Positions 30,477 to 45,375 of a stretch of DNA of 64,000 bases are shown here, piece by piece (positions within the stretch are counted from its first letter, which is position 1; the number at the start of each line of letters is the position of its first letter). This DNA comes from a virus. The stretch is from IMG/VR virus record IMGVR_UViG_3300032285_004008; one strand, given 5' to 3'. Under the pieces are notes generated by a model. That model saw only the letters and a program-made list of their open reading frames with translations, was not told the DNA's origin and ran no database searches. The translations under genes and the position numbers were made by a program.

Positions 30477-31823
30477 ATGAGCAAAAGAACCGGTAAGCAC
30501 TCCGCACAGCAGAATGACTTTTTGCAGCCAGCTGCAGTAACTATCACCACTGCAACTAACGTTGGTACTAACCGACCATACCTGTTTTCTGCTACTGGAA
30601 ATGCTGGCACTGGTGGTGCAGTAAACCTAGTATGGACTCTACCTAATGGCTCAGCTCCAGCTATAAGCTACGATATTACAACTACCCCTACAACTGTAAC
30701 CAAAAACACAACTACACTTCCAACTTCTGGATCTCCATTCGTATTTGAAGGTCTTGCCTCTGGTACAGACTATACATTCACGGTAGTAGCTAAGAACAAT
30801 GCTGGAAACTCAAATCCAACAACTTCTCAAACAGTCTCTGTAAGTACTGTACCTCCTGCCCCAAATACTCCGTCAGTTCGTCAGGTCAGTAATGACCAAA
30901 ATGACTACCTAACAATTACAATCTCTGCAACTGGTGGTTCTGCAATTACCAACTTCCACTGGGAAAGTACTGACTCTAAGTCTGGTGACCGAGGAACTAG
31001 TACCGCAGAATTTGCTGTAGCTCAGGAAGCTAATACTGCCCAACAGTATCGTGCTTATGCCACAAACGCCAATGGAAATTCAGACTGGTCTGGTTATTCT
31101 GGGTCTGTAACAACTCCTCCTTACTTCCCCCCTTACTTCCCGTTCTTCCCTTACTTCCCGCCATTCTTCCCGTACTTCCCTCCTTATTTCCCATACTTCC
31201 CATATTTCCCTCCTTATTTCCCATACTTCCCACCGTTCTTCCCTTATTTCCCTTATTTCCCACCGTTCTTCCCTTACTTCCCACCGTTCTTCCCTTATTT
31301 CCCACCGTTCTTCCCGTTCTTCCCGTTCTTCCCTCCTCGCTTCTGCATCGAGGAAAGTACTTTGGTTGATACTCCTTCGGGATCAGTAGCGGCTAAGGAT
31401 CTTAAGGTAGGAGATACCTTGGTATCAGTAGCTCTAGAAGAGCTTTCAACAGAGCCTCGATCTGAAGAAAACTTTATTATTGGCCCTACACTAACCCTCG
31501 GCGGTGGAGAGCCAGTAGAGACTACTATCGTTGACATTATCGAGAGTACTAAGGCAGAAATCGTATACTTCAATGAAGATACAACTGCTAAGTACTCAAA
31601 TGAGCAGTCAATGTTTGCCCTAGTTGATGGTCAGTTCCAGACTATAAATGCTGGACTACTGAAGCCTGGAGACTACTTGGTCAAGGTGCTGCCGGATGGT
31701 ACTTATGTAACAGAAGAGATCTCATCTATCACCGAGATTTACGAACCTACAACCGTATATCAGTACATCTGTGAACCATATAACTGGTTTATTGCAGGTG
31801 GATATCTAGTACACCAGAACTAA
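30477..31823 (+). CDS. FN3-like domains + 76-aa Pro/Tyr/Phe repeat + C-terminal Hint (intein-like) domain
   Basis: FN3 pattern (GLASGTDYTFTVVAKNNAG); repeat at aa 214-289; Hint from Cys290: CIEESTLVDTPSG..KDLKVGD ... LKPGD ... VYQY..EPYNWFIAGGYLVHQN*. Confidence 0.8.
   Translation: MSKRTGKHSAQQNDFLQPAAVTITTATNVGTNRPYLFSATGNAGTGGAVNLVWTLPNGSAPAISYDITTTPTTVTKNTTTLPTSGSPFVFEGLASGTDYTFTVVAKNNAGNSNPTTSQTVSVSTVPPAPNTPSVRQVSNDQNDYLTITISATGGSAITNFHWESTDSKSGDRGTSTAEFAVAQEANTAQQYRAYATNANGNSDWSGYSGSVTTPPYFPPYFPFFPYFPPFFPYFPPYFPYFPYFPPYFPYFPPFFPYFPYFPPFFPYFPPFFPYFPPFFPFFPFFPPRFCIEESTLVDTPSGSVAAKDLKVGDTLVSVALEELSTEPRSEENFIIGPTLTLGGGEPVETTIVDIIESTKAEIVYFNEDTTAKYSNEQSMFALVDGQFQTINAGLLKPGDYLVKVLPDGTYVTEEISSITEIYEPTTVYQYICEPYNWFIAGGYLVHQN
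31116..31343 (+). repeat. P(P)[YF]F coding repeat, 22 units; polypyrimidine-skewed
   Basis: PPYF PPYF PFF PYF PPFF ... PPRF, read from the sequence. Confidence 0.95.
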
Positions 31824-31829
31824 ATTAAG

Positions 31830-31862
31830 AAAAAATAAGGCCCCCACGGGCCTTATTTTTTT
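31830..31862 (+). terminator. Rho-independent (bidirectional-type) terminator
   Basis: AAAAAATAAGGCCC-CCAC-GGGCCTTATTTTTTT. Confidence 0.85.
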
Positions 31863-31914
31863 GCCAAAATCAGGATAATAGTGCTAGACTGGTGCCAATA
31901 GTTCAGGAGAATAT

Positions 31915-42700: not shown

Positions 42701-43024
42701 AATGGGACTATAAGAACGGCTACGACAGGCAACACAGTAACCATAGACATGTCTACTGATAGCATCGTTCATATCCATGTTAATTCAGGAACTCTTACAG
42801 TTACTTTAGCTAACCTTACCGCGGGTAGAACTTGTGAGTTATTGGTCATGTACGGAAACACTTCTGGGGCACAGGTTTTGCACGGAATAACTGGGGCTTA
42901 TCAATCCAGCAACTCATCAAATGGTCAATCTTTTTTCTTGCCAACTAAACAGTTCAGTTCTTACAGGTATTACTGTGTAGATGGCACTCTTGCAAACACC
43001 TTCGTAGTAGGGCAGGTCATCTAA
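39752..43024 (+). CDS. Collagen-like fibre protein (Gly-Ala-Thr/Gly-Pro-Thr) with interspersed globular modules
   Basis: Hundreds of residues of G-X-Y triplets; two copies of [16 protein letters not shown]; C-terminal head domain. Confidence 0.9.
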
Positions 43025-44403
43025 TGGCTATAAATTTTCCAGACTATCCAGAAGTAAATGACCTATTTACTGCAGGCAACACCACATGGAAGTGGTCAGG
43101 ATCTGCTTGGAATGTTGTTCGAATTCCGCCTACGGCAGATCCAGGACCTACAGGACCTACAGGACCAACTGGTCCTCAGGGTACGTCTATTAGATTTATG
43201 GGCTCGGTAGAGACTATTTCTGCACTTCCAAGCACTGGAAATAATATAAATGATGCTTGGGTAGTAAACGAGAGTGGCGATCTTTACGTCTGGGATGGAG
43301 CACTTCCTTGGCATAACGTTGGCCAGATTGTAGGACCTACGGGTGCAACAGGTGCAACTGGTGCAACGGGAGCAGATAGTACAGTTCCAGGGCCTACAGG
43401 GGCAACTGGTGCTACGGGACCTCGAGGAGAGACCGGGCCAACTGGAGTAGCTGGTCCTACCGGTCCTCAAGGAGCAACTGGTGCAACTGGTGCAGATAGT
43501 ACGGTAACTGGTCCTACAGGCGCTACGGGAGCAACAGGTGCAACAGGTGCAACAGGTAGTCAAGGATCAGTAGGGCCTACAGGTTCAACCGGTCCTCAAG
43601 GGATTCAAGGTGTTCAGGGTGCAACTGGATCTCAGGGCGTAGTAGGGCCTACAGGACCTCAAGGCAGTGTCGGCCCGACTGGAGCAGATAGTGCAGTTCC
43701 TGGCCCTCAGGGAGCAACAGGTGTAACGGGAGCAACTGGTGCTACGGGTGCAACCGGTCCGCAGGGAATACAAGGTATTCAAGGCATAACTGGAGCAACT
43801 GGTTCCACTGGAGCAACAGGTGCTACTGGTGCTAAAGGAGATACCGGGCTTACAGGGGCTACTGGACCGACCGGCCCAACGGGATCTACCGGTGCAACTG
43901 GTGCAAACAGCACAGTCCCAGGGCCTACCGGTCCAACTGGTCCAACAGGTGCGACTGGTGCTACTGGCAGCCAAGGTATTCAGGGAATCCAAGGAGCTAC
44001 TGGAAGCCAGGGTATTCAAGGTATTCAGGGTGCAACTGGATCACAAGGAGTGGCTGGTCCTACCGGTCCTCAAGGAGCAACCGGGGCAACCGGACCTACG
44101 GGTGCAACAGGTGCAACAGGTGCAAATAGTACGGTAGCTGGTCCTACAGGGCCTACTGGCTCTACAGGTGCAACTGGTCCTACTGGACCAGCAGGAACCT
44201 ATACTTTTACGTCTCCACTAGTAAATAATTCAGGTACGGTTAGTGTATCTAGTGATCCAACCTTTAGTGGTACTGTTACTGCAACTACCTTTAATGGCAC
44301 TGCCACAAATGCGTCTAAGATTAATAATAGACAGCTATTCGTTGCTGCCAGCGGTCCTACTGCTGGTGTAGCTAACGGGGATATCTGGATTAAAACTTCT
44401 TAG
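43024..44403 (+). CDS. Collagen-like fibre protein
   Basis: G-X-Y triplets; N-terminal FP..P..D.F....W.W.G.AW module. Confidence 0.9.
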
Positions 44404-44412
44404 GAATAGACA

Positions 44413-45375
44413 ATGGCAACCGCAACGACAGCATTTAGTGGTAGACCCACACTATCGTTACGCTCTACCGTAACTGAAAGCAGTACAAACGCTAGCACCT
44501 ATGTAACTTCAGTTAACTGGAGCTTGGTGATTATTGCTTCCAGTAACACATCTACGGCCTACAATACTGGTGGTACCGCTGCTTGGTCTATGGATGTCAA
44601 TACTAATGGAAGTACTCCAGTATCTTCTGGAACCTATAGTTACGATTTTCGCGCACCGAATACAACAACAAATAAAACTATTGCATCTGGTAGTAAAAAT
44701 ATTTCTAGAGGCTCGTATGGGTCTTATACCACAAACTTTAGTGGATATGCAGATGGTGGAACTGGTGGTCTAATTGGTTCCGCTACAGCCGCTGGATCTC
44801 TTGCTCTAAGTAATATTGTTGCTCCACCATTCTTCCCATACTTCCCGCCATTCTTCCCGTACTTCCCTCCTTATTTCCCATACTTCCCTCCTTATTTTCC
44901 TTATTTCCCACCGTTCTTCCCGTTCTTCCCTCCTAACTTTACTCCAGCTCCTGGATGGTCTGGAACCGGTACAGATGTTGTATTAGCTACAGCAACCGAA
45001 GGAATTTACTACTCAGATGGAATAGCTGCAAGTAATGCTACTTCATACTCAATTACCAGCGGTTCATTCCCTAGTGGAATAACATTTGATACTTCTACTG
45101 GAGCAGTATACGGGACACCAGCTACTGGAACTAAAGGAACATACAACTTAACATTCACTGCATCTGGTGCTGGAGGTAGCACTACAAGTGGGACTATAAG
45201 TTTGATTGTTGTTCCAGAACCTGGTCAACTATTTACATATGACACTGCCACTGGAACCTGGAAAAAGGCAATAGTAAATACATACTCTAATGTGGGTGGA
45301 GTTCCAACATCAAGCAAGAATACCTTGTATGTATATGACTCAGCCTCAGGCCAGTGGGTAATTAGTAAGGGTTAA
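44413..45375 (+). CDS. Virion protein with Pro/Tyr/Phe repeat and Ig-like (He_PIG-like) domain
   Basis: 39-aa PPFF/PYF tract; YSITSGSFPSGITFDTSTGAVYGTP putative-Ig pattern. Confidence 0.7.
   Translation: MATATTAFSGRPTLSLRSTVTESSTNASTYVTSVNWSLVIIASSNTSTAYNTGGTAAWSMDVNTNGSTPVSSGTYSYDFRAPNTTTNKTIASGSKNISRGSYGSYTTNFSGYADGGTGGLIGSATAAGSLALSNIVAPPFFPYFPPFFPYFPPYFPYFPPYFPYFPPFFPFFPPNFTPAPGWSGTGTDVVLATATEGIYYSDGIAASNATSYSITSGSFPSGITFDTSTGAVYGTPATGTKGTYNLTFTASGAGGSTTSGTISLIVVPEPGQLFTYDTATGTWKKAIVNTYSNVGGVPTSSKNTLYVYDSASGQWVISKG
44824..44940 (+). repeat. P(P)[YF]F coding repeat, 11 units
   Basis: PPFF PYF PPFF PYF PPYF ... PPNF. Confidence 0.95.

Follow-up and report, generated by a model that had tools for sequence, protein, structure and literature searches.

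What does a phage do with a long run of oxygenase genes placed directly behind one of its fibre genes? Oxygenases that depend on 2-oxoglutarate (2OG) and Fe(II) are very numerous in aquatic phages, and their function is still called uninvestigated (PMC9602691). The locus considered here lies at positions 30477-45375 of a 64,000-nt stretch of DNA (hereafter the window) from the IMG/VR virus record IMGVR_UViG_3300032285_004008. The final gene of its tail-fibre module encodes a protein, R (P0001), that carries a long tract of P(P)[YF]F units, and this gene is followed by an array of ten genes, eight of them for 2OG-Fe(II) oxygenases of the prolyl 4-hydroxylase (P4H) type and two, A and B, for proteins of another kind. 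Repeat and array together form, by sequence comparison, a conserved cassette rather than a one-off, and the cassette is common, in a large group of uncultured lake phages. On balance we think it probable that the cassette serves to hydroxylate the P(P)[YF]F tract, the array acting post-translationally on a protein of the fibre module. A large group of orphan aquatic-phage 2OG-Fe(II) oxygenases would thereby gain a candidate substrate encoded next door, and extensive hydroxylation, possibly with glycosylation and sulfation, of phage fibre-module proteins is indicated. To our knowledge, post-translational hydroxylation of such proteins has no earlier description. No published account of the cassette was found in the literature searched, in agreement with an earlier annotation of the same DNA (the sequence-only reading), which knew of no characterisation of the combination.

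The anatomy of the locus is largely as that reading had described it. The structural protein with a 76-aa P(P)[YF]F tract and a Hint domain is present, and Pfam and hhalign searches confirmed that the ten co-oriented genes behind it are eight P4H-like and two DUF6065-like genes. These ten genes (31915-39297) lie on the same strand as R, with ends that overlap or nearly touch. The features of R and the array are:

30477..31823, plus strand: R protein (P0001), 448 aa, with two FN3-like domains, the P(P)[YF]F tract and a C-terminal Hint domain
31116..31343, plus strand: P(P)[YF]F tract of R, 76 aa (aa 214-289), made of 3- and 4-residue units; candidate substrate
31344..31823, plus strand: Hint (bacterial-intein-like, BIL) domain, ~159 aa, with Cys290 at position 1, ending H-Q-N-stop
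31830..31861, unstranded: palindromic hairpin right after the R stop codon, a 14-bp GC-rich palindrome with A6/T6 flanks
31915..32667, plus strand: ox1, PF13640 (E 2.1e-11), HxD..H plus K
32681..33430, plus strand: ox2, PF13640 (E 1.3e-13), core oxygenase
33430..34167, plus strand: A, DUF6065 (PF19541, 92.8 bits against a cut-off of 26.6), no iron triad, part of the cassette core
34148..34885, plus strand: B, phrog_7084, no Pfam match, a distant paralogue of A, missing from some arrays
34900..35574, plus strand: ox3, core oxygenase, always after A/B
35552-36328, plus strand: ox4, variable array tail
36328-37053, plus strand: ox5, variable array tail
37067-37864, plus strand: ox6, variable array tail
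37902-38591, plus strand: ox7, variable array tail
38608-39297, plus strand: ox8, variable array tail

R gives a Pfam match to FN3 (PF00041, E 1.2e-8) and belongs to a family of more than 470 members of 380-470 aa. In translation its tract consists of P, Y and F only, apart from one R residue, and the Pro codons are mixed (CCT 14, CCG 9, CCA 8, CCC 1). Fibre-type structural genes with matches to PHROG tail-fibre and virion-protein families lie 5' of it (19641-30451), R itself being a presumptive virion component, and the first 18 kb and the region from ~45 kb onward carry genes for a PrimPol-D5 primase-helicase, exonucleases, a helicase, PolA and ribonucleotide reductase. The hairpin behind the R gene looks, from its sequence, like a strong bidirectional intrinsic terminator-like element separating R from the array, and given this hairpin the array may be transcribed either separately from R or by read-through. 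No match for P0001, for protein A or for the DNA of the locus was found in the cultured-phage collection.

The evidence that carries the proposed link is the joint occurrence of tract and array, which was tested in two directions. In the forward test, IMG/VR was scanned with a degenerate DNA pattern for the repeat alone, which returned at least 118 viral loci, and their open reading frames (six-frame) were annotated with hidden Markov models (HMMs) made solely from window genes. Oxygenase matches were present in 95 of the 118 repeat-picked loci listed, usually as 3-11 oxygenases, and exactly one A and one B in ~80 of the 118 listed. The array lay no more than 4 kb downstream of R, on the same strand, in 90 of the 95 informative loci. 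For three tract loci on sufficiently long contigs in which the tract protein was not adjacent to an array, A was found elsewhere on the contig (E ~1e-121), and two of these contigs belong to the five exceptions of the forward test. In the reverse test, 80 loci were chosen by protein A alone from the IMG/VR contigs that encode it, which number at least 582 and make up, as a baseline, at least ~0.02% of the 2.9 million contigs in the collection. A strict repeat protein lay upstream in 45 loci, and the remaining 23 informative loci had an upstream variant tract, (A/S)PP(G/S/A)FF, outside the initial regular expression (one apparently frameshifted within the tract), so that a Pro/Phe repeat protein stood upstream of the array in 68 of 68 informative loci. 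The repeat itself is far beyond what chance would give.

The linkage sought between repeat and oxygenase arrays was therefore found both forward and in reverse, across hundreds of contigs, and the earlier proposal that the two belong together stands. Arrays in relatives without repeat proteins, which had been named as the finding that would count against it, did not turn up among the informative A loci. The further expectation that Hint domains and collagen genes accompany the array was borne out in some loci only, about a third for the Hint domain and about a fifth for collagen. Among cellular genomes, A was present in only seven contigs of metagenome-assembled genomes, from scattered taxa and mostly from lakes, which are probably mis-binned phage DNA.

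Assignment of each oxygenase to its best-matching window paralogue gave a core order, R-(ox1)-ox2-A-(B)-ox3, followed by 2-7 variable oxygenases. The orders observed were 'R 1 B 2 A 3', 'R 1 2 A B 3' (the window), 'R 2 A B 3' and 'R 2 A 3', with ox2 always directly 5' of A. This core order is stable though A falls to 37% identity, the position of B shifts, the array tail varies and genes are inserted. The unit common to all tracts is P(P)FF, in which Tyr occasionally replaces the first Phe, and many tracts are Tyr-free. Orthologues of ox1 are present in most arrays and missing from the (A/S)PP(G/S)FF sub-group; this small-residue variant of the tract accompanies loss of both ox1 and B, an association that is not separable from phylogeny. 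A role for ox1 as a Tyr-specific enzyme was considered and rejected, there being no clean relation of tract Tyr content to ox1. The analogy once drawn with mussel adhesives and 3,4-dihydroxyphenylalanine (DOPA) is weakened because the universal unit is P(P)FF and Tyr is optional in it.

By genome comparison, the cassette is also independent of the replication backbone. Three cassette genomes (91-100% complete) are without homologues of the PolA and primase of the window, both of which are present in a close relative, G006 (153.7 kb, with terminal repeats). In DSL-LC01, a freshwater Actinomycetia phage whose PolA is the closest among cultured phages, the fibre module is of another kind, and both R and the array are missing. 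An actinobacterial lake host is suggested for the window phage because its PolA is 76% identical to that of DSL-LC01. The replication genes of the window resemble those of actinobacteriophages, unlike a virion protein at 26550-29588 (1012 aa; phrog_5838, 905 bits), which is 44-47% identical to structural proteins of the T4-like cyanomyoviruses S-RSM4, S-RIM44 and Syn1; fibre modules appear to be shared across very different phage groups.

All eight oxygenases of the array match PF13640, seven of them above the gathering score (ox5 reaches 25.7 bits against a cut-off of 27), and in alignment all eight retain the HxD..H iron triad, the downstream K/R and the P4H motif YLNDDYEGGEL.F. Their closest solved relatives by sequence are peptidyl hydroxylases, namely the collagen lysyl hydroxylase LH3 and a Bacillus P4H (E ~1e-3), and by this similarity the array oxygenases are predicted to be intact peptidyl-proline hydroxylases. 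They are old paralogues, 25-44% identical to one another, with the pairs ox4/ox6 and ox5/ox7 at 42-43% identity; ox3 has in addition a weak Pfam match to Tet_JBP (E 0.0018). Three more 2OG-Fe(II) oxygenase-like genes lie outside the array on the minus strand (1134-1769, 3185-3784 and 7167-7787), near a Nol-like carbamoyltransferase gene (5716-7158). Two of the three were confirmed by Pfam as PF13640, and 1134-1769 was matched only by the window-oxygenase HMM.

The two remaining genes of the array encode proteins that are homologous to each other (hhalign E 3.4e-5). Their AlphaFold models (pLDDT 70.6 for A and 83.1 for B) both match the beta-clip fold of dUTPase and dCTP deaminase, with a Foldseek E of 2.5e-4 for A and, for B, a VIA-align Z of 9.2 against dUTPase (rmsd 3.1, 126 residues aligned); a profile of A against the PDB gave E 0.19. 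The top 22 VIA-align rows for B are all dUTPase, dCTP deaminase or herpesvirus dUTPase-like, and the nearest Atlas structural cluster of B has PF19541 in 12% of its members. Judged by these models, A and B are dUTPase-like in fold, though not members of the dUTPase family, and are no oxygenases; in this respect the earlier description of a hydroxylase array is not supported as it stood. B retains G-I-V-D-N-D and A-Q-I-L-P-F, which, in comparison with phage dUTPases, resemble dUTPase motifs III and IV, and A is without the corresponding aspartates. A search of the cassette genomes with PF00692 never detected A or B; in two of five long genomes with the cassette it found a canonical dUTPase encoded elsewhere. 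A housekeeping dUTPase role for A or B was rejected on the ground that PF00692 finds only that separate enzyme.

A functional context for the two proteins comes from their relatives. At the 50% level the DUF6065 superfamily comprises 1,402 representatives. Ten long relatives were scanned, and in four of them a PF13640 oxygenase domain is joined to DUF6065, in one an Stf0 sulfotransferase (fusion records P0178, P0185, P0212, P0222 and P0214; L216). Because A is invariably adjacent to ox2 and DUF6065 occurs in fusion with PF13640, the best reading of A and B is that they work together with the oxygenases. No paper on DUF6065 was found in the literature searched, and the cassette would give the family its first functional context, that of a dUTPase-fold partner of P4H-type oxygenases, backed by domain fusions in bacteria. 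One such fusion, P0222, is encoded on a bacterial chromosome; its gene has an aminotransferase gene (with FUR further out) on one side and an integrase gene, then cobalamin genes, on the other. Distant homologues of B (25-30% identity) occur in halovirus HSTV-2 (gene 40; L208) and in ~50 haloarchaeal tailed viruses. Their record positions in the other haloarchaeal viruses are similar to that in HSTV-2, the one virus in which the neighbourhood was read. The B family may have had a nucleotide-related ancestor.

Genes inserted between R and the array in relatives of the window bear on what the array acts upon. In the loci of four relatives the insertion is a gene of the 'GlcNAc' glycosyltransferase family PF11397 (GT60), which we take to be the polypeptide O-GlcNAc transferases, Gnt1 included. 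In some relatives, genes for a Sulfotransfer_2 protein and an Asp/Asn beta-hydroxylase-like protein (Asp_Arg_Hydrox) occur together in this position, and in some a gene for a DUF6171 protein is among the insertions. PF11397 corresponds to CAZy family GT60 (PMC6418280), and in the Skp1 pathway Gnt1 glycosylates a hydroxyproline made by a P4H (PMC3515798). A protein substrate is favoured because the inserted GT60, sulfotransferase and Asp/Asn hydroxylase genes encode modifiers of proteins and glycans. The window cassette itself is without a GT60 gene. About 6 kb downstream of the block, the window has a beta-1,4-glycosyltransferase-like gene (51193-52314; phrog_13126, E 1.7e-106) and a kinase/cytidylyltransferase-like gene (50089-50838), and these might supply glycosylation in the window phage.

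The Hint domain of R was recognised by homology. A Pfam search of P0001 gave no Hint call, and a single-sequence search against the PDB was weak (E ~0.1); a profile of the R family matched the solved BIL domain 2LWY over the whole domain (E 2.6e-9, profile positions 280-434) and additionally MJ0781 and the Pho RadA and CDC21 mini-inteins. Some family members carry precomputed Intein_splicing/PT-HINT matches (PF14890/PF07591). Cys290 follows directly on the tract, and in a 25-member alignment its column is at least 90% conserved, in a C-I-x-x-D-T-L-I block-A pattern. Block B is S-N-E-Q in the window copy, which departs from the canonical T-x-x-H; across the family it is (S/T)-x-x-(H/Q), with about one-third of the aligned relatives keeping His and the others having Gln. 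The family consensus ends in ...WFIAGGYLVHNK-stop, and most members end in ...W-F-I-A-G-G-Y-L-V-H-N-K-stop. Splicing calls for H-N followed by a +1 Cys, Ser or Thr on a C-extein, and the window copy and the family are without a C-extein; because this nucleophile is lacking, the domain is unable to splice and capable of self-cleavage at most, which is plausible for the window copy despite its non-canonical sequence.

A Hint-sized C-terminal domain is present in 47 of 143 array-adjacent R proteins, about one-third, and the domain, earlier counted as part of the system, is accordingly optional. Its presence at the C-terminus of R is a case of a Hint domain employed as a module of a phage fibre-module protein. 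Of the other R proteins, 44 end in a short tail of 20-40 aa that contains 4-10 Cys, some end in an acidic tail, and some have no tail. In the R homologues of L004, L023, L032, L063, L099 and others, a tail with 6-10 Cys per 20-40 residues replaces the Hint domain (example pattern C-x-G-C...Y-C-W-Q-A-C-P-x-C-C-G-x-C-G-C), and such a tail may form a disulfide-rich or metal-binding knob at the fibre tip.

Taken as a mechanism, the proposal is that, inside the infected cell, several non-redundant P4H-type oxygenases, with ox2 and ox3 always among them, would hydroxylate the P(P)FF tract of R and that of a second tract protein downstream (P0002). Proline is the likeliest target of hydroxylation, and the beta-carbons of the aromatic residues are possible ones. 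A and B would act as partners of the oxygenases, in presenting the substrate or in a further tailoring step, and in some relatives the hydroxylated tract would then probably be glycosylated and sulfated. The Hint domain, where present, most likely removes itself via an N-S acyl shift at Cys1, after which the mature protein would end with the tract or shortly behind it. A bolder version, which we offer as a speculation and think improbable, is an undescribed three-part phage pathway. In it, 5-11 oxygenases would polyhydroxylate the P(P)FF tract, A and B would be new oxygenase-coupled tailoring enzymes that decorate the hydroxyls with a pyrimidine nucleotide or nucleotide-sugar, and the Hint thioester would ligate the modified fibre covalently to a component of the virion or the host surface.

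Several observations weigh against hydroxylation of the tract by the array, and a number of them would suit linkage by descent only, in which R ends a conserved fibre module and the array is a neighbouring auxiliary module acting on host proteins, small molecules or the 2OG pool. In 127 of 131 loci the FN3 regions of R belong to a single family, and in 103 of 115 the fibre genes upstream of R form one family of their own; the R-array synteny may therefore be partly inherited within one tail-fibre module. The terminator-like hairpin stands between R and the array; the additional PF13640 genes outside the array bring the window to at least 11 oxygenase-like genes, not all of them tied to the tract; and roles in nitrogen/2OG metabolism and in DNA repair have been proposed for cyanophage oxygenases (PMC3037559, PMC9602691). 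The need for 5-11 distinct oxygenases on a three-letter tract lacks an explanation, no repeat protein stands near the one bacterial DUF6065-oxygenase fusion examined (P0222), and in virions of chlorovirus PBCV-1 no hydroxyproline was found (PMC7019647). There are, finally, the nucleotide-enzyme fold of A and B and the homologue of B in HSTV-2, which adjoins genes for thymidylate synthase and DNA polymerase. Against descent alone, however, the tract itself tracks the array, tract proteins on other scaffolds or in other positions are still found in array-bearing genomes, the two-way co-occurrence is complete despite rearrangements and insertions, and the inserted accessory genes are modifiers of proteins and glycans. 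We regard linkage by descent only as possible, if rather unlikely.

The fold of A and B and the thymidylate synthase neighbour in HSTV-2 would also fit a module for nucleotide or DNA modification, in which A and B would handle pyrimidine nucleotides, by binding or processing them, and oxidation by the oxygenases would fall on bases or nucleotides, and so would the dUTPase-motif-like sequences kept by B and the weak Tet_JBP match of ox3. Yet the oxygenases are P4H/lysyl-hydroxylase-like, and the array lies inside the co-oriented late fibre region, with the DNA-metabolism genes elsewhere. PF00692 misses A and B and finds the canonical enzyme at another place in two of the five genomes, A is without the motif-III aspartates, and fusions with PF13640 oxygenase domains occur in four of the ten long DUF6065 members scanned. 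Such a module would leave the linkage to the tract without explanation, and we consider it very unlikely.

The last part of the block lies downstream of the array:

39387..39752, plus strand: tail-fibre-assembly-like protein, 121 aa (phrog_1084, E 6e-23; phrog_3304, E 6.4e-11), outside the core
39752-43024, plus strand: collagen-like protein P0003 (PF01391, E 1.4e-97)
43024-44403, plus strand: collagen-like protein P0004 (PF01391, E 1.3e-38)
44413..45375, plus strand: P0002, second tract protein, with a 39-aa tract in mid-protein (nt 44824-44940), then a He_PIG Ig-like domain

Two collagen-like fibres and a second repeat protein are thus present as had been described. The block had also been called uninterrupted, which is true of the ten contiguous array genes and fails at the 121-aa tail-fibre-assembly-like gene before the collagens; this pattern of array, intervening gene and collagen is found in close relatives of the window only. 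P0002 bears directly on the tract, since a 50-nt block at 31152, in the R tract, is identical to one at 44839 in P0002. The tract is portable, occurring on two different scaffolds within the window.

With P4H- and LH3-like enzymes adjoining two collagen-like genes in the window, it could be supposed that the array really acts on the collagen-like fibres and hydroxylates Pro or Lys in their Gly-X-Y repeats, as happens in animals and mimivirus. Collagen genes are present, however, in 21 of the 118 repeat-picked loci listed and in ~17 of the 80 A-picked loci, mainly in close relatives of the window, and in those of the window G-A-T, G-P-T and G-S-T make up most of the triplets, Lys and Y-position Pro being scarce. 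As the substrate of the cassette at large, collagen is highly improbable, and as a core substrate it was rejected on this distribution. The collagen-like fibres are, from the loci compared, lineage-specific neighbours and not core, although they had earlier been counted as part of the system; they may be additional substrates in the sub-lineage of the window. Both collagen-like proteins carry a repeated non-collagen insert of ~55 aa, twice in the first and as a related copy in the second.

Scant credence is due to a precursor like that of a ribosomally synthesised and post-translationally modified peptide (RiPP), with tract and Cys-rich tail as a core peptide tailored by the array, FN3 as leader and Hint as release device: many tailoring enzymes beside a repetitive peptide, Cys-rich C-terminal tails in many R homologues and a Hint domain of self-cleaving type would suit it, but the Hint domain would free the N-terminal part and not a C-terminal core, R is a 448-aa multidomain protein with two folded FN3 domains within a fibre module, the block lacks the short leader-core precursor of RiPP clusters, no RiPP recognition element, protease or exporter was seen in it, and nothing specific favours this part of the sequence-only reading.

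Hydroxylation of the tract in a fibre-module protein can be set beside several known systems. By family, the proteins of the window fall within the Hint superfamily through homology and a first-residue Cys, the collagen repeats through PF01391 and DUF6065 through A, with no family match to PF00692. Like BIL domains (2LWY) and the C-terminal Hint domain of Hedgehog, R has a homologous C-terminal domain that starts at Cys; it differs from them in that the window copy has S-x-x-Q in place of T-x-x-H and ends H-Q-N-stop, that the domain is optional in the cassette and that its cleavage is predicted. Phage tail fibres are known to carry self-cleaving intramolecular chaperone domains (Peptidase_S74), and the likeness of the R Hint domain to these would be functional, a C-terminal domain removed after assembly, as expected here from its sequence.

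The hydroxyproline-rich glycoproteins of plants and algae and the mussel foot proteins contain Pro/aromatic repeats that undergo hydroxylation and, in many cases, subsequent glycosylation. The R tract is without their Ser-Pro(n) or Lys units, Tyr is optional in it, and there is no homology, so that the relation is one of analogy only. The closest precedent is the P4H of chlorovirus PBCV-1, a virus with repeats of the (PAPK)n type. As in the cassette, the viral genome encodes both a 2OG oxygenase of the P4H type and Pro-rich repeats that have been proposed as its substrates. The enzyme hydroxylates Pro-rich peptides (Eriksson 1999, as cited in PMC7019647), and the biological role of the chlorovirus enzyme is described as unresolved (PMC7019647). 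PBCV-1 is, however, a eukaryotic virus with a single enzyme and has no gene cluster, DUF6065 partner or Hint domain, whereas in the cassette a single P(P)FF tract is firmly linked in the genome to 5-11 enzymes. The T4-like cyanophages share with the window phage the many divergent PF13640-type genes of aquatic phages, often near fibre genes (PMC3037559, PMC9602691), but in the T4-like cyanomyoviruses checked these genes are scattered and form no ordered array.

In the Skp1 pathway of Dictyostelium and Toxoplasma, the cytoplasmic P4H PhyA makes hydroxyproline, which is then glycosylated by the GT60 GlcNAc-transferase Gnt1 (PMC3515798, PMC11570480), and the presence of a PF11397/GT60 gene between R and the array in some relatives of the cassette is a likeness to this pathway. 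There, the modification is regulatory and falls on a single Pro of a folded protein, whereas in the cassette the candidate target is the long repeat of a protein from a phage fibre module.

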